Source of the DNA: Dehalococcoidia bacterium
GTDB lineage: Bacteria; Chloroflexota; Dehalococcoidia; Bin125
DNA: 64,000 nucleotides
Direction: 5' to 3'
Assembly (NCBI GenBank): GCA_963663185.1
Contig: OY760135.1
Location: 463,684-527,683, forward strand
Shown here: positions 1,291 through 49,854 of the stretch, in pieces
Position numbering within the stretch: position 1 is the stretch's first letter
How the letters are laid out: each line of letters opens with the position of its first letter
The notes under the pieces: generated by a model
Databases searched by the model: none
Seen by the model: the letters and a program-made list of their open reading frames with translations, nothing else
What the model was told of the DNA's origin: nothing
Position numbers and translations under genes: made by a program

Positions 1291-1294
1291 GATC

Positions 1295-1502: not shown

Positions 1503-1657
1503 AAGGCCCCCGAGACGACAGTCAACTAAGACGCAGCCGATCCGGCCGCCACAACGGCACGCCCAGATGCGATCCTAAGCCAGTAGGTGTGGTTCAGATC
1601 GTTGACATCGCGCTATCACGGCTACGCTTAGTCTGTTCAGTAAGAAGGGCGGCAACT

Positions 1658-9578: not shown

Positions 9579-9582
9579 GACC

Positions 9583-9873: not shown

Positions 9874-10025
9874 GCACCGCTGCGAACCGCCGGTGATTCG
9901 GTTTCTCAACCGCCCGAAATGCTCCATGTCAGCGAAAGCAGACTTTCAAGTGACCTCCACGGGTAGTAGAATCACGAAGAAGGGAGTCTTGCCCCTCCGC
10001 CTTGACAACAGAATCCGATTTAGCA
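9874..10025 (+). promoter_or_regulatory. Putative CRISPR leader
   Basis: 152-bp region between cas2 stop and first repeat. The terminal, degenerate repeat is at the opposite end of the array, consistent with a leader here. Confidence 0.5.
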
Positions 10026-10794: not shown

Positions 10795-10881
10795 TTCAAG
10801 ATTGCCCCATCCAGCTGTCGCTTCAAGCTCGAACGTGTGGAGGGAGTGTGACCATCGTAGGCTGCGATAGGCTGCGATCTT

Positions 10882-11496
10882 ATGGGCAGCGATTTACTAT
10901 CACGGACCGAGGCGCGACGGATCGAGGCGCTTGCTGGACTCGACGCCGAGACACAGGCTAGGCTCGGTCAATTCTTTACCCCAGAGCCCGCTGCCCGGCT
11001 TATGGCGGGCATGCCAATCCTGCCGCGATCGGGAGTCTTGCGGGTGCTCGACCCCGGTGCTGGCGTCGGGTCACTCTCTGCCGCCCTGGTTGACCGCGTT
11101 CTGTCAGACGACTCAAACCTTGCGGTTAAAGTTACGGCCGTTGAAGTCGATCCTCGCGTAGCCGCCCCGCTCAGGGAAACAATGGCAGACTGCGAGACCA
11201 GCGCCCTCCGAGTAGGTCGGCTGGTTTCCACCAGGGTCGTCATTGTCGACTACATCGAATCGAGCGTCGGCTTGCTCGGCATTCAAGCCCTCCAAGGACC
11301 CTTCGACATCGTCCTCATGAATCCTCCCTACGCGAAGCTCGGCACTGACTCACCGCACCGTAGGCACGCCATGGGAGTAGGTCGAGTTCGGTACCAGCGG
11401 CCCAAGCGCGTTACCGTTGAGAGTAGCGGCGCCATGCGCCGACGGCTGAGACGAGGCCGGTCATGGTTCGGCTCATTGGCGCCATTGCCGCGTTGA
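10882..11496 (+). pseudogene. Truncated N6-adenine DNA methyltransferase (N-terminal fragment only)
   Basis: Motif X GQFFTPE, motif I VLDPGAGVGSL and motif IV DIVLMNPPY are present. After NPPYAKL the translation becomes basic low-complexity and stops after about 50 aa with no target-recognition domain. The 3' end overlaps the next gene by 34 nt. Confidence 0.6.
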
Positions 11497-13271
11497 TCCT
11501 CTGCCTTGTGACGCTCAGTGCCTGCGCGGAAGAGATCAACACCTGGCAGCCGCCGGCGGAACTTGGGATCTGTGCGCGGACGCTCGCCGTACGCGAGGCA
11601 ATTGTCGCTCAGACCGACCGCGTGCACAGCTGCGCGTTCATTGATGCGGACGACCTGGATGCGATCCGAACACTGGACCTCAGCGGTCGCGACATCACGG
11701 CGCTCCAGGCCGGCGACTTTGAGGGATTGCGCAGGCTGCGAGAGTTGCGGCTCAACGGCAATGCCCTGCGCACGCTGCCTCACGGCATCTACGACGGATT
11801 ACCCATGCTCCGCCTGATACACCTGCACGAAAATCCCGGCGCCCCGTTCCCGCTGCGCATCGATCTGCAAGTCGGCCAGGAGCGCGACGAACGAAGGCTC
11901 TACCTGCGACTGCCGCTGCGGCCGCCTGGACGCGTCGTCGCCCATCTGCAGAGCGACGGTTTGATGCTCTATCAGATTGCCGCAACGATCGATGCGGGCA
12001 GCCACGTCGGCCGCGAAGTCTACATAGAACGGAGCAACACGGCGGCGGGGACAGCGCGGGTGCTGCGCGTGGCAGTTGATCGAGAAGTAGCAGACTGCGG
12101 TCCGGAGGCCTGCTGGACCGGGATCGTGCTGATGGGGCAGCGCGATGCTGTCGAGATCCCTGCATTAGCAGGCGACGGCGAGCCGCTGCAAGGGTTACCG
12201 ACGCTAGTGCTGCGCGTTGATTCGCAATCGTTCGTCCACGACGCAGTTGTCGAACGGGGCGTCATTTCCGGTTCGGGCGGCTGGCGTTACTACGAGTACG
12301 CCGAACGACCTGACGGGGACGACGACAGAGTTGATTGCACGGTCACCTCGTACAACTACGTTACAAGACGCGGTGCAGGCATGGGCAGCTCGTTGCAATA
12401 CGATGGCCCTTGTCGGCTAGCGATCGGTAGCGGATCGAGCAATACTGCGTACAACTTGCCGGCCAGGCGAATCAACCAAGACATGACATTGGACCGGCGC
12501 AGCGGCGACCCCTGTCTGGCGTCGAACAATCTGCGGATCGAGGCCGACGCTGCGAGTCTCGGTGAGATCGAGCGGATCGACGCCGTCAACGTTCATGCTG
12601 AGAGCCGCTGCTACTACTACATCAGCGTCGCGCAGGATCCCAATCGAGCCGCGCCGTTCCGCTTTGCCGATGGCGAGTCCTGCGTCGTCGAAGTCGTCAA
12701 CGGGCGGATTTCCTCGTCCGGCTGCAAGGAGCTGGTCTGGTGGGGCGGCTGGGGGTTCGGCGGAATCGACTCGCTGGCCGAGGCACGCGCCGACGCTGCA
12801 CTGACACGCCCATATGTGAACGGTGAAGAGCACATCAAACGGCTGGCCGCGATCGCCGCCTGTGAGACCCTGCCTGAGGTGTCGCTGACGCTGGACGAGA
12901 ATTCGTTTCGCGAATCCCCATTCCACTACCAGTCAGTGAGCGATGATCAAAGGCTCTGCGAGCTGAGCATTACAGCCATGGGTCCGGAGGACGCGCTCGC
13001 CGCAGGTGAACGCTGCGTGGTCTCCGCCAGGTTTGCGTTGGCGAACGTCGTGAGTACACTTCCGACTCAGCAGTCGGGCCACTGCGATCAGATTGTGCAT
13101 CAGGCAAACTGGTCGCAGTCCAGCGGCCGCTGGAGCGAGGAGGAGCGGCAGGCGTTCCTCGAACAATACGCATCACAACTATGGTCCTTAAGCGACGCAG
13201 ACTGGCAACGGCTGCGCGAGGGTCATTTCTGCATTGACGACATCTGCACGCCGGTGCCGACAGCACAGTAA
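11463..13271 (+). CDS. Secreted lipoprotein with N-terminal leucine-rich repeats and a Cys-rich C-terminal region
   Basis: Signal peptide plus lipobox MVRLIGAIAALILCLVTLSAC. LRR consensus LDLSGRDITALQAGDFEGLRRLRELRLNGNALRTLPHGIYDGLPMLRLIHLHEN. 602 aa. Confidence 0.7.
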   Translation: MVRLIGAIAALILCLVTLSACAEEINTWQPPAELGICARTLAVREAIVAQTDRVHSCAFIDADDLDAIRTLDLSGRDITALQAGDFEGLRRLRELRLNGNALRTLPHGIYDGLPMLRLIHLHENPGAPFPLRIDLQVGQERDERRLYLRLPLRPPGRVVAHLQSDGLMLYQIAATIDAGSHVGREVYIERSNTAAGTARVLRVAVDREVADCGPEACWTGIVLMGQRDAVEIPALAGDGEPLQGLPTLVLRVDSQSFVHDAVVERGVISGSGGWRYYEYAERPDGDDDRVDCTVTSYNYVTRRGAGMGSSLQYDGPCRLAIGSGSSNTAYNLPARRINQDMTLDRRSGDPCLASNNLRIEADAASLGEIERIDAVNVHAESRCYYYISVAQDPNRAAPFRFADGESCVVEVVNGRISSSGCKELVWWGGWGFGGIDSLAEARADAALTRPYVNGEEHIKRLAAIAACETLPEVSLTLDENSFRESPFHYQSVSDDQRLCELSITAMGPEDALAAGERCVVSARFALANVVSTLPTQQSGHCDQIVHQANWSQSSGRWSEEERQAFLEQYASQLWSLSDADWQRLREGHFCIDDICTPVPTAQ

Positions 13272-13776: not shown

Positions 13777-16695
13777 ATGGCCAATCAGACCGAACCGACG
13801 CTCAACGCTGCGCTTGGCAACCTGCTCCAAGGCATGATGCGAACGTACAGTGTTCGATCCGAGCACACAGGACTCATCGTCGGTCAGTTGGGCGCGCAGA
13901 TTGACAACCTCGTCACCGCGTCCGGACGCTCCCCGGTCGCGGTCGAAGCGGAATTCATGCCTGCCCACACCGCTGAGGTCGACGCCGTCAGCCGGCTCGG
14001 CAAGACCATCGTGGGTCACCCGCGTCCCGTCGAAGCGGCAATCGCCCTCCGCTATCCCGCCGATCTCAAGTCCGCCGCGAATCTTGAATCCGCACTTCGC
14101 GACGCCCGGCTTTCTTACTGCGTCCTGTATGACGAGCGCGACAAGGACGGCAACCACATTCGCTTCCCGACGTCCGGTTGGCTCGAAGGCGGTCTTGACG
14201 ACCTCGCCGACCTCATCCGCCTGGTCTCGGTTCCCGAACAGGCCGTCAACGTTGCAGCCGATTCGCTTCAGTCCGGAATCGAAGCGGCTGCCGTGGTGCT
14301 CGACGCGATGGCTGAGACACAGCGGCACGTGGTTCGATCAGTTGCCGACATGCTCGGCATGCGCAACGTGCCCCAGACCCGGCGTATGGCTTGCGCGATC
14401 ATCGCCAACGCGCTGGTCTTCCACGAGCGCATCGCCGGCATGCACGAGGGCGTCAATCCGCTGCTGCAAGTTTGCGGCCCCGACATTGCCAATCCGCAGA
14501 ACAAGACGCTGAACGCCTGGGACGCGATCCTCAAGATCAACTACTTTCCTATCTTCGCCATCGCCCGCGACTTGTTGCGCCAACTGCCTGCGGGACCCGC
14601 CAAACAAGTCCTCGATATCCTGCGCGACACGGCGCAGGAAGTCGACGCAGCCGGCGTCGATCACGCACGCGACCTGACCGGACGCATCTTCCAGCGCCTG
14701 ATCTCCGATCGCAAGTACCTCGCGACCTTCTATACGCGGCCCGCCTCGGCCGCGCTGCTGGCCCGACTCGCGGTCGCCAAGTTGCCGGATGTGGACTGGT
14801 CCGACGCCGATCGCATCGCCAAACTCCGCGTCGGCGATTTCGCCTGCGGCACGGGCGCGCTGCTGTCCGCCGTCTACGAGGAAATTGCGGCGCGACACGA
14901 GCGCGCGGGCGGCGACCCCGCCGAGCTGCACGCTCCGGTGATGGAGCAGGTCCTCTACGGCTGCGACGTGATGCCGTCGGCGGTCCATATCACCGGCGCC
15001 ACGCTGGCCGGCGCCCAGCCCAATATTGGCTACCAGCAATCACGCCTCTACACCATGCCGTACGGACGCCAAGACGATGGCAGCGTGCAGATCGGCTCGC
15101 TCGAACTGCTCAAGGCGTCGAATCTGCTCACCTTGTTCAACACCAGTGATCCTGCGCTGCAAACGGGCAGCGTCGGCGAGGAAACCGCCGCCCAGGTCAA
15201 CGTTGATATCCCCGACGACGCCTTCGACCTCGTAATCATGAACCCGCCCTTCACCAGCAACACCAAACACTTCGACGCCGAAGACGGCGTGGTCAACGCA
15301 GCATTTGCAGCTTTCGATGCTAAAGAAGACGATCAAGCAGATATGGCAGCTCTGTTGGCCAAACTGGCTAAGGGGTCCACATACCACGGACACGCCGGTC
15401 AGGGTTCGGCCTTCGCCTCAGTCGCCCACAGAAAGCTAAAGCCTGGCGGAGTGGTCGCCTTGGTGCTCCCATTCACCGCAATCAACGGGTCGTCTTGGAC
15501 GAAGTTTCGCAGGTTGATCGCAAACGAGTACGAAGATCTGTCAATCCTCAGTATCGCCGCGAACGGCGACGATATGTCGTTCTCATCCGATACAGGTATG
15601 GCGGAATGCCTCGTCATAGGCCGAAAACGTTCGCCGGGACAATTCCTTTCGAAGCGGTCGGAGTTTGTTTCCCTTCGGCGGCGTCCTGAGGGAGATTCCG
15701 AGGCCCACGTAGTCGCAAGTGGTGTAATCGGCGCAGGTGCGAGCGCTGTGCGCAAGATTGAAGATGGTCCATTTGGAGGTACCCGTTTGTCGGCAGGAGA
15801 CCAGCTTGTTGGCGAAGTTCTTAACGCTCCTGTCAGCAACATTGATAGCGGATGGGGTGCGGCGCGGATCAATGACTATGCAGTGGCTCAGGTTGGCGCG
15901 TCCCTTGCCAAGGGACAGTTGTGGCTTCCGGCCCAGCAACACGCTATCGACTTGGCCGTCGCGGATTTGAGCGACGTCGGAACAAGGGGTATTGACTCGC
16001 AACTCCTCATTAGCACAGCCCACAAGGGCCCATTCGACAAAGTCCCGCCGAGCCCGACAGCTACATATCCATCGCTGTGGAATCACAGAGCACAGCAAGA
16101 GACCCGGATCCTCTGCGCTCCTGATTCGAGCATGCTTGTAAAGCCAGGAATGGAGTATCGAGCTGCAGAACTGTGGCAAACTGCCGGCCGTGCACATGTG
16201 AATCGTGACTTCACATTTGGCTCCCAAGCCCTAGCAGTGGCGTTTACGGAGCGTAAGTCGGTGGGCGGTCGCGTTTGGCCGAATGTGACCTTCGATGACT
16301 CACGATTCGACTATGCCATGGCGGTCTGGGGCAACAGTACATTGGGTTTGCTGATGTATTGGTGGTATTCCAGCCGCCAACAGTCAAGCAAGGCGACCCT
16401 CACAATCAAGATGTTTGGCTCGCTTCCCATCCTCGACTTCCGAGAACTCAGCGACGATCAACTCCAAACCGCCGAGGATATCTTCGACGACTTCCGTGAG
16501 CGCGACCTCCTACCCGCCTATCTTGCCGACGCCGACCCCAATCGCGCCCACCTCGACCGACGCGTCGTCTGCGACCTGCTCGAGTTTGATCAGTCGGTCT
16601 ACGAGGGCGTCCGCCGGCTCGCAGCCAAATGGTGCGCCGAACCGTCGGTACACGGCGGCAAAGCGCGTCCGATTAACGCGGCATTGGTCGTCTGA
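13777..16695 (+). CDS. Large gamma-class N6-adenine DNA methyltransferase (972 aa), possibly a type IIG-like RM fusion or orphan MTase
   Basis: Motif X ATFYTRPASAALLARL, motif I VGDFACGTGALLSAV, motif IV DLVIMNPPF, all in order. About 290-aa N-terminal domain of unknown function and about 450-aa C-terminal (TRD-like) region. No separate restriction nuclease gene adjacent. Confidence 0.7.
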   Translation: MANQTEPTLNAALGNLLQGMMRTYSVRSEHTGLIVGQLGAQIDNLVTASGRSPVAVEAEFMPAHTAEVDAVSRLGKTIVGHPRPVEAAIALRYPADLKSAANLESALRDARLSYCVLYDERDKDGNHIRFPTSGWLEGGLDDLADLIRLVSVPEQAVNVAADSLQSGIEAAAVVLDAMAETQRHVVRSVADMLGMRNVPQTRRMACAIIANALVFHERIAGMHEGVNPLLQVCGPDIANPQNKTLNAWDAILKINYFPIFAIARDLLRQLPAGPAKQVLDILRDTAQEVDAAGVDHARDLTGRIFQRLISDRKYLATFYTRPASAALLARLAVAKLPDVDWSDADRIAKLRVGDFACGTGALLSAVYEEIAARHERAGGDPAELHAPVMEQVLYGCDVMPSAVHITGATLAGAQPNIGYQQSRLYTMPYGRQDDGSVQIGSLELLKASNLLTLFNTSDPALQTGSVGEETAAQVNVDIPDDAFDLVIMNPPFTSNTKHFDAEDGVVNAAFAAFDAKEDDQADMAALLAKLAKGSTYHGHAGQGSAFASVAHRKLKPGGVVALVLPFTAINGSSWTKFRRLIANEYEDLSILSIAANGDDMSFSSDTGMAECLVIGRKRSPGQFLSKRSEFVSLRRRPEGDSEAHVVASGVIGAGASAVRKIEDGPFGGTRLSAGDQLVGEVLNAPVSNIDSGWGAARINDYAVAQVGASLAKGQLWLPAQQHAIDLAVADLSDVGTRGIDSQLLISTAHKGPFDKVPPSPTATYPSLWNHRAQQETRILCAPDSSMLVKPGMEYRAAELWQTAGRAHVNRDFTFGSQALAVAFTERKSVGGRVWPNVTFDDSRFDYAMAVWGNSTLGLLMYWWYSSRQQSSKATLTIKMFGSLPILDFRELSDDQLQTAEDIFDDFRERDLLPAYLADADPNRAHLDRRVVCDLLEFDQSVYEGVRRLAAKWCAEPSVHGGKARPINAALVV

Positions 16696-19377: not shown

Positions 19378-22300
19378 TTAGTCGTCGTCGAGGATGGTGC
19401 CGGTGGCCGTGCCGTCGGTGATAACTGCGCCATCCGCCTCCGTCAGGATCAGCGTCAGCGTCTCATCGGCCTCTCGGCGACTGTCGTCGTAGATGTTCAC
19501 GCCGGCATGGGCCCACGTCCAACCTGGCCAGAAGATCACCTTGAGGTTGCCGATCGCGTAGTCCACGCCATTCGTGGCGGTTCCCGCGCGGATGTCATAC
19601 TCGACCGTAACGGTCTCGTCCGACGCCTCGCTCAGCGTGACGACGAACGCCAGATACCAGCTCCCTTCGATATCCGAGGCGTCTGCCACCGATACCTCTG
19701 GCAGCTGTTGCGTCGGCGGCGCGTCGTCGTTGTCCGACACGGCGACCGTGCCCGCGCCTTGCGAGCTCGACACGGTGTAGCCGCTGCCCGTGTTGACCGT
19801 CGCCGTGACCGAGCCGTCCGACTCGTCGGTTGAGTCGTCGCTGGTGGCGATCGTCAACGTGACGCTGCCGCTGGTCGGGATGGTGACTGTGCGCGAGCCG
19901 GTGCTCGCGCCGAAGTCGCCGCTCTGGCTGACCGTCACGCTGACCGGCAGGTCTGCCGACGGGGAAGGACTCGCCGTGACGGTGAACTCGACGTTGCCGC
20001 CCTCGGTGACGCTGGCGCCTGCGCTGATGCTCACCACTGGCGTAATGTCGTTGTCCGACACCGCGACCGTCCCGGTCTTGCTGGAACCGAGGTCGTAGGC
20101 AGCGCCGTCAACCAGAGTCGCCGTAACCGAGCCGTCCGGCTCGTCCACTGAGTCGTCACTGGTGGCGATGCTCAACGTGACGCTGCCGCTGGTTGGGATG
20201 GTGACTGTGCGCGAACCCGTGCTCGCGCCGAAGTCGCCGTCCTGGCTGATTGTCACTTCGACATCCAGGTCAGCCGTGGGCCTCGGGCTCGCTGTGACGG
20301 TGAACTCGACGTTGCCGCCCTCGGTGACCGCGTTGCCGGCGCTGATGCTCACGACCGGCGTCGGCGGGACATCGTTATCCGACACGGCCACCGTGCCCGA
20401 GCCCTGCGAGCTTGAGACCGTGTAGCCGCTGCCGCTGTTGACCGTCGCCGTGACCGAGCCGTCGGACTCGTCCGTCGAGTCGTCGCTGGTGGCGATGCTC
20501 AACGTGACGCTGCCGCTGGTCGGGATGGTGACGGTGCGCTGGCCCGTGCTTGCGCCGAAGTCGCCGCTCTGACTGACCGTCACGCTGACCGGCAGGTCTG
20601 CCGACGGGGACGGACTCGCCGTCACCGTGAACTCGACGTTGCCGCCCTCCGTGACGCTGGCGCCGGCGCTGATGCTCACCACCGGGTCCGGTACCACGAT
20701 GACCGGCGCAACTGTCACGTCGTCGTCCGTCACGTTGACGCTTTCCGAGCCGAGTGAGCCGACCGTGTAGCCGTTGCCGCTGTTCAGCGTCAGCGACACT
20801 GAGCCGTCCGACTCATCGACCGAGTCGTCGGTCGTCGTGATGCTCAGGGTGAAGCTGCCGCTCGTCGGTATCGTCACGCTGGATGGGATCGAGCCGTAGC
20901 CGAAGTCGCCTGTCGTGACCACGTTGATGCCCACGCTGAGGTTCGCCGATGGAGCCGGATTCGCGGAGATCGTGAAGCTGACCGTGGCGCCCTCTGAGCC
21001 TCCGCTGGAGCTGAGGATGTTCACCTCAGGCGTCGGCGGGATGACCACAGGTGGAATGACCACGGTCGGTATCACCGGCGGCGGATTGGTCGTCGCGCCG
21101 GCCTCGATCAGCCGCAGCTGCGCCGCGATTGGAACCCAACGTCGCCAGCCCGCGTCGGCGTAGACTTGCGCGGCTGCCGCGGTCATCGGCTCCAGATCGG
21201 GGTAGCTCTCGACGCCGAAGGCCTCGAGCACGCGCTTCCAGCGATTCACGTGCTGCGCGCCGTTCTGCGTCTCGCCCGCGTAGCTGCGCACGTTCGCGAG
21301 CACCTGCGGGTCGACCTGCGCGTTCGTAGGCGCGGGCGCCGGTTGCGGGTTCGCCGCCTCCAGCGCGACCAGGTACTCAGCCACGGGAATCCACCTCGCC
21401 CGGCCAATGTCCACGTGGGCCTCGGCCTCGCCGGCTGTTGTCGGCTCGAGATCCGGATAGCTCTCGACGCCGAAGGCCTCAAGCACGCGCTTCCAGCGAT
21501 TCACGTGCAGCGTGCCGTGTTGTACTTCCGCCGCGTAGCTGCGTACGTCCGACTCCAACTGCGCGTCCAGCACCGGCCCGGTCGACGTCGGCGCAGCGTC
21601 GTTGTCCGACACGTCCACCGTCTGCGACGAGCTGGACCCCAGGGTGTAGCCGGTGTCCGCGTTCAAGGTCGCCGTAACCGTCCCGTCGGGTTCTTCGACG
21701 TTGTCGTCGGTGGTGTCGACGCTCAGCGTCGCGGAGCCCGATGGAGGGATGAGCACTGACACCGGACCGGTCGCAACTCCGTAGTCGCCGGTCGCCGAGA
21801 CCGTGGCGTCCACCACCAGACCCACTACGGGCGGCGGATCAGCCGTGACCGTGAAGCTGGCGGAGCTGCCCTCGACGCCACCGCTGGCCGCGGTGATATC
21901 CACCTCGGATATCGCGTAACTGTCGTCGTCAAGCAGCACGATAGCCACCGCCGACGGCTCACCCACCGAGTACCCGTCACCGGGGGCAATGCGCCCCTCA
22001 ACCCGGCCGTCGACGCGAGGTTCGCTGTCGGAGTAGGCAGTGGCGCTCCACGAGGCTGTGGTCTGGCCCGCGGTCATCGTGATCGAGCTGGCGAGCCCTT
22101 GGCCGACGTAGTCCAGCCCTTCGCCCATGAACTCCTCGACGGCGACATTCACCGTGAGGTCGGTCTGCGGCGCCTGGTCAGCGGTGACGGTGAAGCTGAC
22201 GACGCCCCCTTCGGTGACTGACGCCGTGTCCGCCGCGATGCTCAGCGTCGGCGCCGCAGCAGTCTGCTGGCGAGCAGTGACCGGGGTGCCTATGGTCCCG

Positions 22301-24159
22301 GAGCAGGCGATGCTGCGCGCAAACCAGACGCCGTAGCCACGAGTGTCAGCCATCTCGAAGCAGAACTGCAAGACCTCCCCGGCCACCCGGTCTCCCCGAA
22401 TGGTCACCGGTGTGACGGCGACCCGGTAGGGAACCGGGGTGGGAACCACGCCCCAGTTCGTCGCCGGAAGGCCCAGCACAGTCAACGCGACCGACCACTG
22501 AGTCTTGTCCCACGGATGCTTGGCCGGGATGATCGCTTCTTGTGCAGCTTGGCCCGAGGTGGTCATCGACACCTCGAACCGGTCGAAGTTCTCGTTGGCG
22601 TGCGCGTAGTCGTTGCCGTCCGCGTCGGGCAGCGCCCATCGCCACGCCAGGGTGGTCTTGAGCACGCCGCCCCGGCCGGAGGTGGAGTCCGCGTACGCCG
22701 TGAGCTCCTGGGCATAGGTGGACTGTGTCTGCGGCACATCGTGGTCGTTCACCCACGCCTGCACGCTCTGGTACTCCGCCGGGGGGATGACTCGCCGGAG
22801 AGCCGTGACCGTCTGTCCTGGCGCAGTGAAGTCCGGCACACACCCGTTCGACTCGCTGCAATGCGTTCTGGGCCTGGTGATCCCCTCTGTCGCGGGATAC
22901 TCCAAGTTCACATACTCATAGACGACAGGCCCGCCGTGAATCCGGGCGCTGTGCCAGATCTCCGTAGGTACGTGATAGCGATGCTTGGCGCAATGCACCT
23001 GCACCGTCACCGTTTGGGGCGTGCTCCAGTTCGACGAATCGAAGCGCAGCCGTGTGTAGCCGAGATTCAAGTTCACCGGCGGGGTGCCCTGCGGACCGTG
23101 CCAACGGCGGACACGTGAGTTCTCCACAGAAACGCGGCCCTTGGTATCCGGGCGCGGCAGCACTGAGTATCCCGCGTGCTTGCCGATGTCGTCGGCGAGC
23201 GCGCCGACGCCCATGTCATCGGGGTCGTAAATGTCCACATGCACATAACGGCCCGGGCCGGGGTCCTCTGTTAGCTTCACCGTATAGGTGTCCGAACTCA
23301 GGGTTGCTCCCGCACTAGTCACGCCCGACGGGCAACTCGCGTGTTCGTCGAAGCGCAGATCGCTTTTGCTCAGTTCCACCAGATCCGTAGCCACCTTGAA
23401 CACCGGCGAGATCCCGTACAAGGAGTGACTTTGGCGGCGTGAGGCAGAGGTAAAGCCTAGCGGGCCCCTTTCGCCGGGGTTCGCCATGGCTCGGCCTTGG
23501 GTGACGACCTGGCTGCCAGTACCATAGCCTAGCGGGTTGCTGGACTTGGTGCCGTTGTTGTTGGTGCCGGTCCAGGTCCAGTCGTTAGGGACCGTGGTGC
23601 CCTGCTGGTTGCGTCGGTCGGCCACCGCCCAGTTGATCCAGCGATCTTGCCAGAAGCCGTTGTAGTTCGCAGCCACCTGCGGCCCGTTCAACCAGTAGAT
23701 GAGCTCGCCGGCACCGTCGGTGGACGGGTTCATGTTGGTGTGGTCGCGGGCGTCCACCGCTGCCGTCGACCCCACCACCCTGAACAGCGACGCATACGGC
23801 CGGATCGCCGGATGCGCGATCTGATTCGCGTTCCCGCTGGTCCTGCCGATCTCCCGCTGCACGAACGTGTCGTAGGTAGCGATGTCGGTGGCCGTGGCGT
23901 CGCGCCACGTGGTGGTCACGAACAGCAGCCGGAACGTCTGGCCCGGCCCGATCCCTGACGGGATCAGCGGCCAGTCCTGCGGGACGGTGTAGGTTCCGTC
24001 AGCGCTGGCCGTCGGGACGGTCTGCGCCTGCGCCGACTCATGCCGCAGTCCTCCCGGCAAGATCGCTGCGACGACCGCAACCGCAATCAGTGCTGCCAGC
24101 GCCAGCAGCCGCCTCGCGCTTCGGCCCCTCGCCGCCCTCGCACGCCGCGCCCTCAACAT
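19378..24159 (-). CDS. Giant secreted repeat protein (1593 aa) with Calx-beta-like modules and C-terminal Calx-beta domain
   Basis: N-terminal signal MLRARRARAARGRSARRLLALAALIAVAVVAAILP. About 10 modules of about 100 aa (VSISAGASVTEGGNVEFTVTASP ... DDSTDESDGSVTATV ... VSDND), three of them near-identical. Two tandem about 70-aa NRWKRVLEAFGVESYPDLEP repeats. C-terminal Calx-beta (TVEYDIRAGTATNGVDY ... DDSRREADETLTL). Confidence 0.8.
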   Translation of the reverse strand: MLRARRARAARGRSARRLLALAALIAVAVVAAILPGGLRHESAQAQTVPTASADGTYTVPQDWPLIPSGIGPGQTFRLLFVTTTWRDATATDIATYDTFVQREIGRTSGNANQIAHPAIRPYASLFRVVGSTAAVDARDHTNMNPSTDGAGELIYWLNGPQVAANYNGFWQDRWINWAVADRRNQQGTTVPNDWTWTGTNNNGTKSSNPLGYGTGSQVVTQGRAMANPGERGPLGFTSASRRQSHSLYGISPVFKVATDLVELSKSDLRFDEHASCPSGVTSAGATLSSDTYTVKLTEDPGPGRYVHVDIYDPDDMGVGALADDIGKHAGYSVLPRPDTKGRVSVENSRVRRWHGPQGTPPVNLNLGYTRLRFDSSNWSTPQTVTVQVHCAKHRYHVPTEIWHSARIHGGPVVYEYVNLEYPATEGITRPRTHCSESNGCVPDFTAPGQTVTALRRVIPPAEYQSVQAWVNDHDVPQTQSTYAQELTAYADSTSGRGGVLKTTLAWRWALPDADGNDYAHANENFDRFEVSMTTSGQAAQEAIIPAKHPWDKTQWSVALTVLGLPATNWGVVPTPVPYRVAVTPVTIRGDRVAGEVLQFCFEMADTRGYGVWFARSIACSGTIGTPVTARQQTAAAPTLSIAADTASVTEGGVVSFTVTADQAPQTDLTVNVAVEEFMGEGLDYVGQGLASSITMTAGQTTASWSATAYSDSEPRVDGRVEGRIAPGDGYSVGEPSAVAIVLLDDDSYAISEVDITAASGGVEGSSASFTVTADPPPVVGLVVDATVSATGDYGVATGPVSVLIPPSGSATLSVDTTDDNVEEPDGTVTATLNADTGYTLGSSSSQTVDVSDNDAAPTSTGPVLDAQLESDVRSYAAEVQHGTLHVNRWKRVLEAFGVESYPDLEPTTAGEAEAHVDIGRARWIPVAEYLVALEAANPQPAPAPTNAQVDPQVLANVRSYAGETQNGAQHVNRWKRVLEAFGVESYPDLEPMTAAAAQVYADAGWRRWVPIAAQLRLIEAGATTNPPPVIPTVVIPPVVIPPTPEVNILSSSGGSEGATVSFTISANPAPSANLSVGINVVTTGDFGYGSIPSSVTIPTSGSFTLSITTTDDSVDESDGSVSLTLNSGNGYTVGSLGSESVNVTDDDVTVAPVIVVPDPVVSISAGASVTEGGNVEFTVTASPSPSADLPVSVTVSQSGDFGASTGQRTVTIPTSGSVTLSIATSDDSTDESDGSVTATVNSGSGYTVSSSQGSGTVAVSDNDVPPTPVVSISAGNAVTEGGNVEFTVTASPRPTADLDVEVTISQDGDFGASTGSRTVTIPTSGSVTLSIATSDDSVDEPDGSVTATLVDGAAYDLGSSKTGTVAVSDNDITPVVSISAGASVTEGGNVEFTVTASPSPSADLPVSVTVSQSGDFGASTGSRTVTIPTSGSVTLTIATSDDSTDESDGSVTATVNTGSGYTVSSSQGAGTVAVSDNDDAPPTQQLPEVSVADASDIEGSWYLAFVVTLSEASDETVTVEYDIRAGTATNGVDYAIGNLKVIFWPGWTWAHAGVNIYDDSRREADETLTLILTEADGAVITDGTATGTILDDD

Positions 24160-24339
24160 GAGGGGGGGGGGGGGGGTAGAGAACAGCTTGATCGGAGCGT
24201 CACGTCAGATCTCCCTTCGCTGTCTCCAGCGATAGCACCACTTACCACAAGATAGCCGCAAGCGGCATTTCACTGACGGTATTGATCTGTGATCGAGAAC
24301 GCAAGCACATGACGACCCGTCCGGGCCAATCTATGCAGC

Positions 24340-24925
24340 TATCGCAAATCCCACTCCGTCCCCGCCTCCGAGCGGGGACCCGTTCCGTCCCCTCGCAGGC
24401 CGCTACCAAGCGGGTCCCCGCTCGGGGGCGGGGACGGGGAAGGCAGGGGGGGGGGCTCCAGCCTCAGCCGTGTCGTCGTATCCGGTTCGGCAAGGGGGCG
24501 CCCCCTCTGTCACTGCGTAACATCTCCCCCGCAGAGCGGGGGAGAAAGCAGCACAGACGCGAGAACTGTTTCGGCAGCTTGCTGCACAAGTCGGTTCGCC
24601 GCTCCCAACCGACCCGGCCTCCGAGCGGGTCCCCGATCAAGTCGGGGACGGTTGGTTCAAGCCTGCGGCAGCCAATGCTGCCCTCCCGTCCCCGCCTCCG
24701 AGCGGGGACCCGTTCCGTCCCCTCGCAGAGCGAGCTAACCACTCTCGCTCGCAAGCTGCATGAGCCGCTCTCTTTTCTCCCCCCGCGAAGCGGGGGGAGA
24801 TGCCGAAGGCAGAGGGGGGGGGGCTCCAGCCTCAGCCGTGTCGTCGTATCTGGTTCGGCAAGGGGGCGCCTCCTCTGTCACTGCGTGACATCTCCCCCGT
24901 AGAGCGGGGGAGAAAGCAGAACAGA
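24340..24925. repeat. Imperfectly duplicated about 350-bp unit built from GC-rich hairpin (REP-like) elements with embedded G10/G11 tracts
   Basis: E1 CCGTCCCCGCCTCCGAGCGGGGACCCGTTCCGTCCCCTCGCAG at 24356-24398 and 24686-24728. E2 (about 110 bp, AGGCAG-G10/11-CTCCAGCC ... TCTCCCCCGCAGAGCGGGGGAGAAAGCAG) at 24441-24551 and 24806-24920. Related hairpins GTCCCCGC-N6-GCGGGGAC recur at 24412-24437, 24622-24642 and 58435-58462. Confidence 0.8.
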
Positions 24926-24973
24926 GCCGCTTTCTCCCCTCGTAGACCTGTGCGTCAACCTCTACTCCGTCGC

Positions 24974-27900
24974 TTACGTCGGATCGCCTGGTTGCGGCAC
25001 GCCGGGCAGCACCTCTGGCGCGGGCGGCGGCTCCGAGGTCACGATTACGAAGCTGCTGATCTGATCGGTCAAGGCGCAGACCTGTTGCGCGGACTCGGGC
25101 ATCGTCAGATGCAGCACGGTCCAGGTCAGGCTGTCGGGGTTCCAGCGGGCGATGTCCGTGAGTGAATCACCAACATTGGACGGCTGCGGCAGGCAGATGC
25201 GGAATTCCTCGCTGATCGCCTCATCGCGGCCCAATCGCCATACGGTGTTGGCGTCCAACAGGGGCTGGTACCGCAGCATCCAGAGCGAGATCTCGATCAG
25301 CGGTTGCGACGATGACACGTCGTAACGCCGCCCGCTCGCGTGATCCAGAATGTACCGCTCACCGTCTCGCCCTGAGCGGAAGCGCGGGCGTTTGTCGGCG
25401 ACGCTGTGGAGCTGAGTGGTGATGTAGAAGCCGCGTGATAACGCCATCTGCTCGTCAGTCAGGGTCGCTGAGAGATCGTTCAGGGTGAGCAGCCCGGTTC
25501 CGGCGCACGGCCGTTGGCTTGGCGCCTCGCGGCCCAGCGTGGGGAACGGCTGCGGGGCGGGCTCCGCCACGTCGCTGACGACGCCTCGGCAGAAGAAGGC
25601 GGGGTCTGACGCCACGATCGCGGCGCGAGGCGGATTCTGTGGACTCGGCGTGCCGCCGACGTTGGTCTGCACCGTCGGCGCGATGGTCGGCGCAATGGTC
25701 GGTGCAATGGTCGCGCGTACGATGACCTCAAGGCTCTTCTGCACAATGACGCCATTGCGGGAGATCTCGACCTGCACGGTCTGTCGGTCGGCCTGGCTGG
25801 GCGTGCCGTACAGACTGGGCTGGGTGCATCGCAGGTTGATCCCGGCAGGCAGCGTGCCGCCGGTCTGGCGGCACTGAATGCCTGTGGTGCCGCCGCTATA
25901 GCTTCCCAGATTGTGCGTAGCGGTCTGTCCCTGTTGGAATGCCACCTGCTGCGGGAAGTTGTTCACATCCAGACCGAGGTCGTTATCCGTGATCGTCAGC
26001 GTGTGGATGCCGGTCCCACCCAAGCTGTATCCAGACCCGCCAGTCAGCGTGAACACGAGCGACTCGGTCGACTCATGCACATTGTCGTTGACGATCTGGA
26101 CCGCAATGTTGACGGATGTGGCGCCCGACGCGACCGCGACCGTGCCGCTGTTGCTGATGGCATAGTCGGGCGTCGCAGCCGCGCTGCCCGACAAGCGGTA
26201 GCTGACCGAGATCGCGCTGGTCGGCGCGGGAGAGATGGAGAGCGCGACCTGGACGGAGCCGGCATCCTCAGCGGCAGTCTGCGACGCCGACGCAAACGAC
26301 ACGATCGGCGTGTTGGTGGGCGGCGGGTTGTCATTGTCGGCGATGTTGACCGTCGCTGCCGACGGATTGCCGATCGTGTACCCGCTGCGCGAATTCAGCG
26401 TCGCCGTGACCGAACCGTTCGGCTCGTCGGTGGAGTCGCCTGTCGTCGTCAGTGACAGCGCACCCTGTCCGTTGGTTCCAACCGTGACCGTCCTGGTCCC
26501 GGTTGATACGCCGTAGCTTCCGCTCGCGCTGACGGTGAGGCTGGCGTCCAAGGGGCTGTGCGGCGTTGGGCTTGCCGTCAGCGTGAAGCTGGCGGCGGCG
26601 CCCTCCGTGATGTCGGCGCCGCCCGCAATCGTCAGCACGGGCACATCATTGTCCCTGATCGTCAGAGTGTGCGCCCTCGTGCCTCCCACGCCGTAGCCGG
26701 CGCCGTCCGACAGCGTCAGCGTCAGCGTCTCGTTGGGCTCATTGTTGGCGTCGTCGGTGATCGTCACCGGTATGTCGACCACGGTCATGCCCGATGCCAC
26801 GCTGACTGTTCCGTTGTTGCTGGTCACTCCAGCGATCGAATAATCGGCGCCACGCGTCGCCGTGCCGGAGAGCGCGTAGCCGACCGACACGGTCGAAGTC
26901 GGCGCCGGCGAGATGGTCAATCTCAGGTTGCGGGCACCGATGCTCTCCGCCACCGACTGCGACGCCAATGTCCACGTCACCTGCGGCTTCGGACGGACGG
27001 TGAGATCGATCGTGAAGCTGGCGGTCTGACCCGTGGGCTGGCGAGCATCGGTCGCTGTGATGGTGTATGTCCGCCGCGATGCGGCCGCCGTCGGCGACCC
27101 GCTGAGCACGCCGCTCGTGCTGCCGAGCGTCAGCCCGGACGGCAGCGCCGGCGAGACCGTGTAGCGGACGGCGCCATCCGCATTGTGGAGCGTGGGCGGG
27201 TTGTAGCTGACCGCCGCCTGACCGACAGTCAGCGTCTGCGACGGCAGGCTGGCCGCGCCAAAGACCATCGCGTCGATTACGGAAATGTCGACGGTGTACG
27301 TCGCGGATTCGGGCGGAGTCTCAGAGTCGGTCGCCGTGATGGTGTACGTCTGCCTTGCCGACGCCGCGGTCGGTGTACCGACGATCGATCCGTCGGTCGA
27401 CAGGGAGAGGCCGGCGGGCAATGCCGGCGACACGCTGTATCCGACTGCGCCGTCCGCGCCGTACATGGTTGGGCGATTGATCTGAGGGTTGATGGAGCTC
27501 GCTGATCCGAGCGGGATGTCCTTGATCAGCGACCGATGGCCGAGCGAGTTGGGGTTGAACTTCAGTGATGTCGGAAGGAAGGTCACCGTCACCTTGTGCG
27601 AGGCCGACAGGGTAGGTTTCGCCCCCTTCGAGTACACACAACGGACGTTGATCGTGTACGTCACCGGGTTCGCGGCGGGGACTGAAGCGGCGCGACCGAT
27701 CAGAGGCCATTGTCCGTTATTTGACAGCTTGGTCACGGCCAGACCGTTGTAACTCAGGCCAAAGTCAGGGGTCGGCTGGACATTCAGCGCCCCACCGTGT
27801 TGGTCGTGGGCCTGGAGCGGGTACAGCGTCACCGCGCATTCCGTGGTGTTGTTGGAGTGCCTCGGCACGCCCACCAACGTCGGAGCGGCGTAGACCGGCG

Positions 27901-28081
27901 TTTCGCCCACCTCAACGGAGACCGCCACCGTCGCCGGGCTGAAGGAAAAGGGCGGCTCGCTGGCCCGCGAGCTCTGAGCGTCTCCGAAGAGAGACGCGCC
28001 GAACACCGCGCCAACGACGGCGGCAAACGCGATCAGCAAACCGACGCCTTTGAACATGTGTAACTGGACGTGGTCTGTCAT
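24974..28081 (-). CDS. Giant secreted protein (about 1035 aa) with Ig/cadherin-like and Calx-beta-like domains
   Basis: Likely start ATG at 28081 preceded by GGGGAGGAGGAAC (the ORF-track TTG start at 28105 is less likely). N-terminal TM/signal GVGLLIAFAAVVGAVFGASLFG. Repeated YxVSPALPAGLSL..TG.ISGTPT..YTITATD (putative Ig domain) and SVTEG...FTLTAS...DDS.DEPNGSVTATL modules. Contains in-frame TIAPTIAPTIAPT (12-nt x3 repeat at 25660-25700). Confidence 0.8.
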   Translation of the reverse strand: MTDHVQLHMFKGVGLLIAFAAVVGAVFGASLFGDAQSSRASEPPFSFSPATVAVSVEVGETPVYAAPTLVGVPRHSNNTTECAVTLYPLQAHDQHGGALNVQPTPDFGLSYNGLAVTKLSNNGQWPLIGRAASVPAANPVTYTINVRCVYSKGAKPTLSASHKVTVTFLPTSLKFNPNSLGHRSLIKDIPLGSASSINPQINRPTMYGADGAVGYSVSPALPAGLSLSTDGSIVGTPTAASARQTYTITATDSETPPESATYTVDISVIDAMVFGAASLPSQTLTVGQAAVSYNPPTLHNADGAVRYTVSPALPSGLTLGSTSGVLSGSPTAAASRRTYTITATDARQPTGQTASFTIDLTVRPKPQVTWTLASQSVAESIGARNLRLTISPAPTSTVSVGYALSGTATRGADYSIAGVTSNNGTVSVASGMTVVDIPVTITDDANNEPNETLTLTLSDGAGYGVGGTRAHTLTIRDNDVPVLTIAGGADITEGAAASFTLTASPTPHSPLDASLTVSASGSYGVSTGTRTVTVGTNGQGALSLTTTGDSTDEPNGSVTATLNSRSGYTIGNPSAATVNIADNDNPPPTNTPIVSFASASQTAAEDAGSVQVALSISPAPTSAISVSYRLSGSAAATPDYAISNSGTVAVASGATSVNIAVQIVNDNVHESTESLVFTLTGGSGYSLGGTGIHTLTITDNDLGLDVNNFPQQVAFQQGQTATHNLGSYSGGTTGIQCRQTGGTLPAGINLRCTQPSLYGTPSQADRQTVQVEISRNGVIVQKSLEVIVRATIAPTIAPTIAPTVQTNVGGTPSPQNPPRAAIVASDPAFFCRGVVSDVAEPAPQPFPTLGREAPSQRPCAGTGLLTLNDLSATLTDEQMALSRGFYITTQLHSVADKRPRFRSGRDGERYILDHASGRRYDVSSSQPLIEISLWMLRYQPLLDANTVWRLGRDEAISEEFRICLPQPSNVGDSLTDIARWNPDSLTWTVLHLTMPESAQQVCALTDQISSFVIVTSEPPPAPEVLPGVPQPGDPT

Positions 28082-28606: not shown

Positions 28607-31600
28607 CTAGCGAGCGTCGAGCCGGCCTCGCGCCCAGCCCTTGGCAATAGAACCTCCGACCGGGTCAGAGAGCTGGATGTAGATCATGTCGTTGTGGTTG
28701 AACTGAGCGTTCAGGCCGATATGCACGTTGATCATGGTTTCGGTCTCCCCCGCGGCGAACGTGAGCGTGCCGCTGGTCCGTCCATGGTCGTCCTGGAAGT
28801 CAAGTCCAGGGAAGAGGAGCGGGGAGAAGCGTCCCATCGTGTATTCCACACTGACCTCGCTCGTAGCGGGGGCATCCAGGGTGACCGGGAACACGAGGGT
28901 TTCTCCGGGGCGCGCTTTGCTCATGGGATTCATGATCGACACTTGCGGGCCTGGCGCCATGTCATCGTCCGTGATGATGAAGGTGCCTGAAGACGGAGCG
29001 CCAATCAGGTAACTGTTGTCCTGTTTGACGCTGACGGTCACTGACCCGTCATCTTCATGGACGGTGTCGTCGACGAGCGGGATGCTGAAGTTAACACTGC
29101 TTGACGCCCCTTTGCCGCCCGGGACGGTCACTGACATGGCGCCTGTCTGGACGCCGAAGTCACCCTTGGCGGCGACATCCAGGTAGACCGTCAGGTCCTG
29201 GTACGGCAACGGGTTCGCCGAGACCGAGAATGTCGCCTCGCCGCCTTCGTAGAGCGCTACGCCGCGTTGGCCTCTCTTATCGATCACCACCTTTGGCGTG
29301 TCGTTGTCAAGGATGGTGAGACTGGCCTGGGAGGGGTCTCCCAACGTGTAGTGTTGGTGAGCCACGAGTCTGACCTTCAGGGTGGAGGAGGCTTCGTTAA
29401 AGCGGTCGTCCCTGGTGGAGACGGTGAGAGTAGCAGTCGCGCCGCTAATCCAGACTCCGGCTGGATTGCCCGTCTTCATCTTTCCTTCCACCTCTGCGGC
29501 GACGATGACGAACATCCGCACTGACGACGGCGGGTCCTGCGTGATCGTGAATGTGGCCTGCTGACCCTCGGTAACGTCATTGCCAGCGCTGATCGTCAGC
29601 ACTGAATTTTCCGGTGGCGTCACTTCGTCGTCGGCCACGTTGACGCGGGCCGTGGACGGACTCCCCACGTGGTAATCGCTGCCCGGCTGGACCGTCGCGC
29701 TGACGGAGCCGTCCGGCTCGTCGAGGCTGTCATTGGTCGTGGGCAGGCTGAGCGTCGCGGAGCCGCTGGTGGGGACGCTGACGGTTCGAGCGCCCGTGGT
29801 GACGCCGAACTCGCCCACGGTCACGACCTTCAGGCTCACATCCATCGGTTGCGCAGGCGCCGGGCTAGCGGAGATGGTGAAGCTGGCAGCGCCGCCCTCG
29901 GTGATGTCACCGTCGGCGCTGATGCTGACTGAGGAGCCGTCGTCGTCGGCCACGCTAACGCTGGCCGAGGACAGGCTCCCGACGCGGTAACCGCTGCCCG
30001 ACTGCACCGTCGCGCTGACGGAGCCGTTCGACTCCTGGACGCTGTCATTGGTCGTGGGCAGGCTGAGCGTCGCGGAGCCGCTGGTGGGGACGCTGACGGT
30101 TCGAGCGCCCGTGGTGACGCCAAAGTCGCCCGCTGCCGCGACGTTCAGGTCTACCGACAAGGGCTGGTGCGGCGTCGGGCTGGCGGAGATGGTGAAGCTG
30201 GCAGCGCCGCCCTCGGTGATGTCACCGTCGGCGATGATGCTGATCTCGGGCACGTCGTCGTCAAGCACGGGGAGCGTAGCGGCATCAGGCGTGCCGACTG
30301 TGTAGCCGTTGCCCGTCTGGACTGTCGCGGTCACTGTGCCATCCGCCTCGTCAACGCTGTCGTCTATCGTGGGCAGCCGGAACAGCAGGCTGCCGTTGCC
30401 TGAGCTCGGAATGGTGACGCTGCGGGCGCCAGTCTGCACGCCGAAATCGCCCGTGGCCGTAATGTCCAGGTTGACGGTGATGGCCTGCTGCGGCATTGAA
30501 CTGGTGCTGAGGACGAAGATCGCTGATTCGCCTTCGCTCGGTCTACTCTCCTGGTCCCGACGGGTGATGCTGACTTCCGGGACATCGTTGTCCGCCACGC
30601 TGATGCTGGCCGACGACGGATCGCCAACGTCGTAGCCGCTGCCCGGCTCGACGGTCGCGGAGACGGAGCCGTCGTTCTCGTCCTGACTGTCGTCAACGGT
30701 GGTGATGGTGTAGCTGGCGGTCGTGCCGCTGAGCTCCACGGTCTCTGCGCCTGAGGCACCGAAGTCCCCGTCCTGCGACGACGTGATCGTGATGGTGAGC
30801 GGACTGGTGGGGGCCTGCGTCGCGTGGATGGTAAAGACGCCCGCGCCGCCTTCGCTGATGTCATTGCCGCTGATGATGGTGATCACCGGGTTCCCGATCT
30901 GGCCGGGAGCGTCGTTATCCCACACCTGGGCCATGCCTGAGGACGGCTGACCGACGGTGTAGTCAGCGCCCGGCAGGACCGTCGCGGTGATGTAACCGTG
31001 CGGCTCGTCCCAGCCGTCGTCAGTGGTGCTGACGGCGTAGTGGGTCGTCGCCTCGCTGACCGTCACGGTAGCCGCGCCGGTGGCGCCGAACGTGCCGGTC
31101 TGCGAGACGGCCACGTTGACGGTGAGCGTGCTGGTCGGCACTGGCGCCGCTGTGATCACGAAGTTGGAGGTACCGCCCTCGGTGACTGAGCCGCCGTTCG
31201 CGATCGTAATCACCGGCAGGGAGCTGGGGTCCGAGACGATGACGAAGTCGTAGTCAGCTGCTGAGGACAAGGTGTAGCCGGCGCTGGAACTCGGCGTATC
31301 CAGCACGGCCCCGATCACGGCGCGAGGTTCCTCAACGGCATCCGCATCCGTGCCGACGGTCAGTACGGCCGTCGTTTCGCCGCCCAGGATGGTGACTGTT
31401 CTCGATCCAGCCTGGCCGAATGCCACGACGCCGCTGTTGAACGGCCAGTCGTTCACGGTCACGGCGATCGTCAGGTCGGCAGATGGGGCCTCGGACGCGG
31501 TGACCGTGAAGCTCGCGTCGTCTCCCTCCGTCACGTCGCCCTGGGCAGTGATGCTGACTTCAGGCAGCGACTGCGCGGAGGCTAGCTCCCCCCCCCCTCA

Positions 31601-31689
31601 TTCCACAGAAACAACAGGGGCACGGCGAACGCCAACAACACGAAGAGCCGGCCTGGACCCTTCGCCTTCAACAGTTCGAGTTTCATCAT
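28607..31689 (-). CDS. Giant Calx-beta-like repeat adhesin, currently out of frame at a G10/C10 homopolymer separating signal peptide from mature protein (putative phase-variable; OFF as sequenced)
   Basis: SD AGGAGGGTC then ATGATG at 31689-31684 encodes MMKLELLKAKGPGRLFVLLAFAVPLLFLWNEGGGS-stop through the C10 tract 31588-31597. The long body ORF (28607..31534, reported as MTEGDDASFTVTAS...) is in the +1 frame; one extra G would fuse them as ...WNEGGGELASAQSLPEVSITAQGDVTEGDDASFTVTAS. The body has about 9 Calx-beta-like modules. Confidence 0.6.
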
Positions 31690-32006
31690 GACCCTCCTGT
31701 GCGCCGCCGTCAAAGCGGCGACCACAATGCATGTTCTACGGCGGAAAGCCGCTCTCAATGTGAGCTATTGTACTAGATTTAGGAAGCGATGTGTAGAGTC
31801 AGCGTCGCGGTCACTGATTCATCCACAATCCGGCGGCGGAATTCGTTGAGGATGGCTGAGTCGCGTGGGTCGAATGGGTCGAGCGGGTCGAGTGGACGAA
31901 TGGCGGTCGATGCCGACGTCAGTCAGGCAGTCATCGGAGTCAGCGGCCGGCGCCAGCCGCCGTCACGCCGTCAATTGCCGGGCATCAATGGCGGATCACC
32001 GAGCGC

Positions 32007-49736: not shown

Positions 49737-49854
49737 ACGCGGCGCCATCCGCAGCTGCGGCACGACTTCAAGGCTTGACGATGCTGACGCTATCTTGTCC
49801 AAGAACAACTAACGTCTCGTATTGGGAACTGTTCTAGAGCACAGGAGAGAGGCG

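Follow-up and report, generated by a model that had tools for sequence, protein, structure and literature searches.

What is the function of a run of 15 cytosines that stands 2 nucleotides (nt) before the annotated start codon of a gene for a giant surface protein? The question is raised by a 64,000-nt stretch of DNA from a Dehalococcoidia bacterium (assembly GCA_963663185.1, contig OY760135.1, positions 463,684-527,683, forward strand), which we call the window and whose own numbering is used throughout. The window has a G+C content of 64%, and its GcvPB protein is 77-85% identical to proteins of metagenome-assembled genomes (MAGs) labelled Chloroflexi and Dehalococcoidia, and also to those of a few labelled Acidimicrobiia. 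On the minus strand, three large genes lie head to tail: a LapA/Calx-beta gene, a He_PIG/Calx-beta gene (24974-28081), and the gene for a protein of 1593 amino acids (aa), at the 5' end of which the tract is found.

We put the probability at about three in four that the tract is a slipped-strand translational phase-variation locus situated in the 5' coding region of a gene for a giant secreted or surface protein. Switching of such a tract would be expected to be frequent and reversible.

Where translation starts

The minus-strand sequence at the gene's 5' end is ...GTTCTCTA-C15-TC-ATG-TTG-AGG..., with TC at 24161-24160, which bears out a preliminary description of the locus as TCTA-C15-TC-ATG. 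The C15 run is too long to be a product of chance and is capable of slipping, and its length goes beyond what base composition would give. Under a first-order Markov model of the window, 0.083 G/C runs of at least 10 nt and 7e-5 of at least 15 nt are expected; four of at least 10 nt are seen, one of them with 15 nt. Homopolymers of 7 or 8 nt are absent from the window, and there are only five runs of 9 nt or more.

The open reading frame (ORF) of 1593 aa has its earliest start codon at ATG 24159-24157, and the in-frame TGA upstream of it, earlier placed at a distance of 10 codons, is 15 codons away. One should, however, look further upstream in the frame that leads into the tract, where the minus strand reads GAAGGGAG-ATCTGAC-GTG-ACG-CTC-CGA-TCA-AGC-TGT-TCT-CTA-(C)15. 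Here, a Shine-Dalgarno (SD)-like sequence precedes a GTG at 24203, located 44 nt upstream of ATG 24159, and the frame opened by this GTG runs into the tract after a leader of nine codons. Simulation of this frame with different tract lengths gives three outcomes. With C10, C13, C16, or C19, the leader ORF is joined to the 1593-aa frame; with C15, it comprises 16 codons and stops at TGA 24155-24153; and with C11, C14, or C17, it extends to about 54 codons and passes over the ATG out of frame. The allele in the window is therefore out of frame, yet the ORF downstream is intact at 1593 codons.

These outcomes would translate into expression as follows. The ribosome would start at GTG 24203, 7 nt after GAAGGGAG, and make the nine-codon leader (V/M-TLRSSCSL), followed by prolines encoded by the tract. 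With a tract length of 3n+1 (C13, C16, or the variant C11-TCTC), leader, signal peptide, and 1593-aa protein would be fused, and the gene would be ON. With 3n, as in the present C15, the leader would comprise 16 codons, with its TGA stop overlapping the ATG, an arrangement that would allow at best weak termination-reinitiation. With 3n+2, the leader would overrun the ATG by about 40 codons out of frame, and the gene would be OFF. As the changes in length would arise by replication slippage at the tract, the states would be heritable and reversible, which is what is meant by phase variation. The frame with the overlapping stop suggests an intermediate level of expression, and thus three states: fusion, coupled reinitiation, and off.

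A comparison with a relative that has no tract is instructive. Locus L004, from a Dehalococcoidia MAG, carries a sister-species orthologue, the nearest relative of the tract-bearing gene (its N-terminal domain is 73% identical), and reads GGGGAG-AAACGC-GTG GCA TTC CGC TCC CTA CCC GAA GTA TTG AGG GCG CGG. Behind this SD-led GTG comes the leader VAFRSLPEV, which reads on without a change of frame into the LRARR... of the signal peptide. When the two loci are aligned, the window's tract corresponds to CTA-CCC, with a single CCC, and the window's ATG corresponds to GTA; the tract is therefore to be seen as an expanded proline codon. The upstream position of the SD and start codon recurs in 45 homologous loci, which are described below. 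Together, the L004 leader and the layout of these loci settle, as far as sequence comparison can, that the start lies upstream of the tract. GTG 24203, rather than the annotated ATG, is most likely the translation start, and the C15 tract is probably coding and not a stand-in for an SD sequence. On the SD-GTG reading, and judging from L004 and the 45 homologues, the tract would lie between the functional start and the body of the ORF. From the SD-GTG upstream of the tract, the L004 leader, and the 45 loci, it follows that the tract probably works as a switch of frame inside the coding sequence, near its 5' end.

The preliminary description had reached another view, namely, that the tract is non-coding, occupies the position of an SD sequence or sets promoter spacing, and tunes initiation or transcription through its length, with ATG 24159 as the sole start. 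We consider this unlikely. It is true that the ATG is the first start in its frame (with the stop 15 codons upstream), that gene callers working on the sister-strain loci L001 and L002 reported a 1593-residue product from this ATG despite the open GTG frame, that many genes in the window have no SD, and that a paralogue from an Acidimicrobiales genome (L005) has a G19 tract upstream of its SD. Against these points stand the tract-less L004, where the SD-GTG leader is in frame and there is no ATG at that position, and the 45 homologous loci with an SD and start codon upstream of the tract. Further, a C run is unable to pair with the anti-SD, and the idea of a promoter spacer is at odds with an SD and a start codon that precede the tract and with a region (23800-25300) in which no sigma-70-like promoter was found.

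A structural role in the RNA was also considered. The folded 5' regions of the window, L001, and three homologues were none of them more stable than shuffled sequences (z +0.2 to +2.0), and this candidate was dropped for that reason; a small hairpin between the C tract and a G run was predicted in all five.

Tract length among strains and homologous loci

Exact-product look-ups with the 1593-aa protein, the 1035-aa neighbour, and the 34-aa signal-peptide ORF returned no match. A search for the exact flank pattern AAGCTGTTCTCTA-N6-30-TCATGTTGAGGGC likewise gave no match in collections of genome and metagenome contigs, the species being absent from both. Close strains were found via the enoyl-CoA hydratase and SDR genes of the window. 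When the N-terminal 640 aa served as the query of a protein homology search, the 97%-identical 1593-aa orthologues of L001 and L002 were not returned, although the collection contains them. The researcher should be aware of this sensitivity gap when dealing with repetitive or low-complexity giant proteins.

L001 and L002, two contigs of more than 2.6 Mb, share 98.7-98.9% identity with the window. Their allele is TCTA-C11-TCTC-ATG, in which the 15 nt between TCTA and the ATG put the leader in frame, whereas the C15-TC of the window is out of frame; the two alleles differ by length and by a T-to-C substitution. The tract had been described as prone to slippage, and its polymorphism between strains that are about 99% identical agrees with this. 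In a 17-kb three-way alignment of the window, L001, and L002, just two indels that are not divisible by three touch the 5' end of a gene. Both are of 2 nt, one at the C15 tract and the other at the G tract of the LapA/Calx-beta gene. The remaining non-triplet indels within genes amount to a compensating +4/-4 pair in the 1593-aa ORF, and all other indels are differences in intergenic tandem-repeat copies, one in-frame change of 12 nt, and the gain or loss of a 368-nt unit. Among close relatives, then, the tract varies in length while its flanks are conserved.

A wider set of homologous loci was gathered with the endostatin-fold domain of the 1593-aa protein (discussed below) alone, as a subset alignment of seven sequences; 79 loci, mostly from long-read MAGs, were retained from 203 hits. 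In 45 of the 79, the giant ORF has a coding-strand run of C8-C22 at its 5' end. In these 45, the order of elements is SD, start, short leader, C8-C22, second start, and signal peptide. Most have an SD of 6-7 nt (AGGAGGT, AGGTGA, or AGGAGG) and an ATG or GTG before the tract. The leader between the upstream start and the tract is 3-25 codons long, and 4-27 nt separate the tract from the second start, which opens an Arg-rich signal peptide. This module is common to at least eight types of leader that are unrelated in sequence, and the MAGs concerned are labelled Dehalococcoidia, other Chloroflexota, Acidimicrobiales, and Binatia. Long homopolymers are otherwise scarce: there are 62 in the 948 kb of homologous loci, and 45 of them are these 5' tracts.

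Tract length differs even where the surroundings do not. Where the 300-nt flanks of two loci are at least 99% identical, the length is different in 27 of 30 pairs of type B and in 5 of 5 of type A (32/35). The consequences for the frame repeat those seen in the window. Of the two frames that do not give a fusion, one is closed by a TGA that shares nucleotides with the second start (+1 or +4; NTGA or NTGNTGA), and this overlap of stop and start is seen in nearly every leader type, the window included; in the other frame, the stop is 50-173 nt beyond the second start. For the window, as for nearly all leader types, simulation thus gives two starts and three frames with different outcomes.

One might expect an out-of-frame tract to be a sign of pseudogene decay. 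This explanation was rejected, since the out-of-frame loci keep intact downstream ORFs: the tract is in frame in 19 of the 45 loci and out of frame in 26, and all 26 retain a long ORF (1,587-3,144 codons in 25; the last is cut by the end of the locus). The window behaves in the same way.

An error of the assembly was considered as well. The consensus of long reads can err by one nucleotide in long G/C homopolymers, and this is the main type of error that remains in it; the true tract might thus be C16 or C13, the gene intact, and the tract a fixed stretch of prolines. Both length-variable tracts of the window are one base short of being in frame (C15 rather than C16, and G10 rather than G11 in the LapA/Calx-beta gene), as such an error would have it. 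We regard this explanation as improbable. The allele of the window differs from that of L001 and L002 by a substitution as well as by length. Among short tracts (C8-C10), the out-of-frame state is as common as among long ones, with five in frame and five out, and a miscall of the consensus is unlikely for out-of-frame tracts of up to 10 nt because they are so short. Tracts are also present in a MAG contig with a k141_ name, as used for short-read assemblies (C16 in L008), and L085, with G11, comes from a Logan run assembly. Finally, near-identical flanks accompany different tract lengths, and other genes of the window show no frameshifts.

Several points weigh against a coding, phase-variable tract. 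The window's own SD is a match of only 4-5 nt; a match of at least 4 nt at such spacing precedes 17% of random start-like triplets in the window, and one of at least 6 nt only 0.9%. SD use among the genes of the window is mixed, although both neighbouring surface genes have strong SDs; given this and the 17% background, GAAGGGAG taken by itself is weak evidence, and direct initiation at ATG 24159 is conceivable. The scan of 23800-25300 for promoters and terminators yielded zero sites, and because it was empty no transcription start can be proposed. Only two distinct alleles were recovered for the tract at 24162-24176, and the length of 15 is an assembly consensus value that may be off by one. 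As for the homologous loci, 19 of 45 in frame is not significantly different from the one-third expected of a non-coding tract, so that the frame tally alone is no proof of coding. Many of the 45 are paralogues and cannot be counted as independent observations.

One pair of copies in a single Acidimicrobiales genome has a different arrangement, with a G19 run upstream of the SD in L005 (5807-5825), against G5 in L006. The G19 may be a variant of the switch that acts on transcription or through the untranslated region (UTR).

The protein, its parallels, and what a switch would mean

What would be switched is a secreted protein with repeated Calx-beta-like modules toward its C-terminus and a domain of about 210 aa near its N-terminus. 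Pfam returned no family for this domain even at E<=10, and a Pfam search with the full protein gave Calx-beta matches only, with no membership of the Endostatin sequence family. The AlphaFold model of the domain (predicted local distance difference test, pLDDT, 94; predicted template modelling score, pTM, 0.91) has an endostatin fold, and when it was compared with the PDB using Foldseek, the top five matches were all of the endostatin type: 1dy1, 1koe, 1dy0, 1bnl, and the collagen XV domain 1dy2. E-values were 9e-6 to 8e-4, the probability was 1.0, and template modelling (TM) scores were 0.58-0.69 (0.64-0.69 when normalised to the target), at a sequence identity of 14-17%.

The domain as modelled thus has its fold in common with endostatin, the NC1 domain of collagen XVIII/XV. 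It differs from endostatin in being bacterial, in having no Pfam match, and in its variable position: the homologues occupy varied places in large repeat proteins of MAGs. Such giant proteins occur in MAGs of several phyla, often with four to six copies per genome and often at the ends of contigs.

The closest documented parallel to the proposed switch is the nanH3 sialidase gene of Gardnerella, which encodes a cell-surface protein and has a coding poly-C tract of 8-14 nt at its 5' end (bioRxiv 10.1101/2020.09.16.300947). In-frame lengths give the full protein and others give short peptides, colony sequencing demonstrated the switching, and the tract leads automated annotation to choose a start further downstream. 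A 5' coding poly-C, a surface protein, and a misannotated start are what the two genes would share. There are also differences. The nanH3 tract follows the signal peptide, as does that of the LapA/Calx-beta gene in the window, whereas the tract of the 1593-aa gene precedes it. The 1593-aa gene adds a short leader and a second start with an overlapping stop, and switching here is a matter of inference.

Phase variation through simple repeats is familiar from textbooks, where it is described for a few cultured pathogens. The poly-G loci of Campylobacter jejuni and Helicobacter and the pilC genes of Neisseria have G/C runs in 5' coding or signal-peptide regions that turn genes for surface structures ON or OFF by slipped-strand frameshifting, and one genome may contain several such loci. 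Those are cultured pathogens belonging to the Proteobacteria and Campylobacterota, whereas here we deal with an uncultured lineage of Dehalococcoidia-type Chloroflexota and with longer tracts, of up to C22. In the lic1 locus (licA) of Haemophilus influenzae, a CAAT repeat is combined with alternative starts, so that strong, weak, and no expression are expected. As in the window, two starts flank or precede the repeat; the repeat unit of lic1 is a tetranucleotide and here it is a single nucleotide, and the weak state here would stem from the stop that overlaps the second start. A further class comprises the poly-C of Bordetella fim, the tracts of porA and opc in Neisseria meningitidis, and the poly-G of tpr in Treponema pallidum, which are untranslated and lie upstream of promoter elements or between them. 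These likewise have a G/C run just upstream of the ORF of a surface protein. The 1593-aa gene does not belong in this class of promoter or UTR switches because an SD and a start codon precede its tract.

In the literature searched, nothing linked simple-repeat phase variation to the Chloroflexota or to sponge symbionts, and nothing tied sponge symbionts to homopolymers or to endostatin-like domains. The mechanism is that of a classical contingency locus; for this lineage and for the endostatin-fold gene family, it had no earlier description in that literature.

Sponges enter the discussion through the names of related MAGs. Some MAGs with endostatin-fold homologues belong to the SB06xx_bin series, and MAGs of this series are listed among sponge-associated Entoporibacteria (PMC7883664). 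The bacteria that carry the module are thus probably sponge-associated. A bolder reading, which we offer as tentative and would not ourselves bet on, is that the 5' cassette arose convergently in several phyla as a three-level stochastic dial on multicopy adhesins that mimic the host matrix, serving persistence or evasion in an early-branching animal host. Across the Chloroflexota (Dehalococcoidia), Acidimicrobiia, and Binatia, the set of adhesins on the surface would then vary from cell to cell.

If the tract is a translational switch, the consequences begin with annotation. The gene model should be corrected to a start at GTG 24203 and a protein of 1607 rather than 1593 aa, and the LapA/Calx-beta gene should be recorded as encoding one protein, not as ORFs of 42 and 998 aa. 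It would also account for the splitting or truncation of such giant genes by annotation pipelines. For biology, it would suggest that symbionts of early-branching animals vary their surface stochastically, by means of proteins with the fold of an animal matrix fragment (endostatin). This would bear on how sponge symbionts escape being eaten or recognised by a filter-feeding host, a proposal that can be put to the test with metagenome reads.

The neighbouring gene, intergenic repeats, and other features

The coordinates of the features discussed are collected in Table 1.

Table 1. Features of the tract-bearing genes and the adjoining intergenic region, in window coordinates
Feature	Position	Strand	Remark
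C15 homopolymer (G15 on +), slippage tract; poly-Pro in the putative leader frame	24162..24176	-	read directly
SD-like GAAGGGAG, 7 nt before GTG	24211..24218	-	L004 counterpart GGGGAG, 6 nt before GTG
GTG, proposed true (ancestral) start codon	24201..24203	-	in frame with 1593-aa ORF at C10/13/16/19
Leader codons 2-9 (T L R S S C S L)	24177..24200	-	L004 leader V A F R S L P E V
ATG, second start, no SD, opens Arg-rich signal peptide	24157..24159	-	start picked by gene callers
TGA ending the 16-codon leader ORF at C15, overlaps ATG (ATGTTGA)	24153..24155	-	
1593-aa ORF (1607 aa if fused to leader), C-terminal repeated Calx-beta-like modules	19378..24159	-	
Predicted signal peptide MLRARRARAARGRSARR-LLALAALIAVAVVAAIL-PGGLRHESAQAQ	24022..24159	-	n-, h-, and c-regions judged by eye
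N-terminal domain of about 210 aa, predicted endostatin-like fold, residues about 50-262	23374..24012	-	AlphaFold and Foldseek
113-nt direct repeat, copy 1, G10 at 24446-24455	24445..24557	.	
113-nt direct repeat, copy 2 (96% identical), G10 at 24814-24823	24813..24925	.	
LapA/Calx-beta gene, body, open frame of 997 codons, LapA and Calx-beta hits	28607..31597	-	
LapA/Calx-beta gene, G10 tract (C10 on +) in signal-peptide c-region, out of frame	31588..31597	-	
LapA/Calx-beta gene, SD AGGAGGG (31698-31692), ATGATG start (31689-31684), signal-peptide ORF	31684..31698	-	

The LapA/Calx-beta gene has a tract of its own, and the coding G10 earlier ascribed to a neighbouring adhesin is indeed there, where it separates the signal-peptide ORF from a body of 975 aa. 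Three alleles are known: G10 in the window, G11 in L085, and G12 in L001, L002/L083, and L003. G11, found in the Logan run assembly, puts the signal peptide in frame with the body and fuses the two. In the sister strains, the gene has been called as an ORF of 42 aa and another of 998 aa, the second ATG being used in L001-L003, and G12 places an internal ATG that lies directly before the tract in frame with the body, which would give a product without a signal peptide. As read from these three alleles, the gene appears to follow the same switch logic as the 1593-aa gene.

Slippage of the RNA polymerase, rather than of the replication machinery, should also be considered. On a G15 template, such slippage would produce mixed mRNAs from every allele, and the tract would be a fixed attenuator without a heritable switch. 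The tracts are long enough for polymerase slippage, as is known from cases with poly-A/T, and, among the assemblies recovered, L085 alone has the tract of the LapA/Calx-beta gene in frame; in the window, L001, L002/L083, and L003 it is out of frame, yet the ORF of the gene is intact. We think this highly improbable as the whole explanation: tract lengths already differ in the DNA, both among strains and among paralogues, and phase variation needs no more than that; moreover, slippage on G/C runs is less well documented than on A/T runs. The two kinds of slippage could act together.

The region had also been described as a multi-switch surface-protein locus, with G10 and G11 tracts in the intergenic repeats among the switches. 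At least two length-variable tracts on surface-protein genes uphold the first part of this description; the second part finds no support, since the runs in the repeats are constant. Both are G10, and the run length is 10 in 5 of 5 repeat copies from the window and from strains L001 and L002. Blastn gave no match to the 113-nt repeats among the 79 homologous loci, and with constant length and no such match, their G10 runs were rejected as switches. Each repeat is part of a 368-nt unit, of which L001 has one copy, the window has two, and L002 has a larger number. The 815-nt intergenic region (24356-24925) contains, besides these repeats, each of which has G+C-rich palindromes, repetitive extragenic palindrome (REP)-like GGGGACCCGC elements; Rfam gave nothing in the intergenic region upstream of the 1593-aa gene.

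Other tandem repeats vary between the strains. An 8-nt unit, TGACGGCG (near window position 31974), and an 11-nt unit, CTGGTCTGGCC (near 28419), are intergenic, and a 12-nt unit (near 25693) lies in frame within a 1043-aa gene.

Further afield, the window holds several genes of an accessory, defence-type, or eukaryote-like kind in the vicinity of the surface-protein cluster. On the plus strand, these are a 602-aa leucine-rich-repeat protein (LRR_8; 11463-13271), an Eco57I-like type IIG restriction-modification enzyme (13777-16695), and a 1510-aa ResIII/helicase protein (49822-54354). A complete type I-G CRISPR-Cas locus (clustered regularly interspaced short palindromic repeats) occupies 1172-10807, with cas7g, csb2, cas3g, a cas3-extension, cas4, and cas1, and an array of 11 repeats (10023-10807) downstream of the cas genes; cas7g contains an in-frame G9 run (1397-1405). 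An IS110-family transposase (38755-39981, minus) interrupts a PD40/Tricorn-like gene that is intact, at 761-764 aa, in L001, L002, L084, and L085. The sole Rfam match of the window, Ms_AS-4 (55 bits, 39076-39157, plus strand), lies antisense inside the gene for this transposase.

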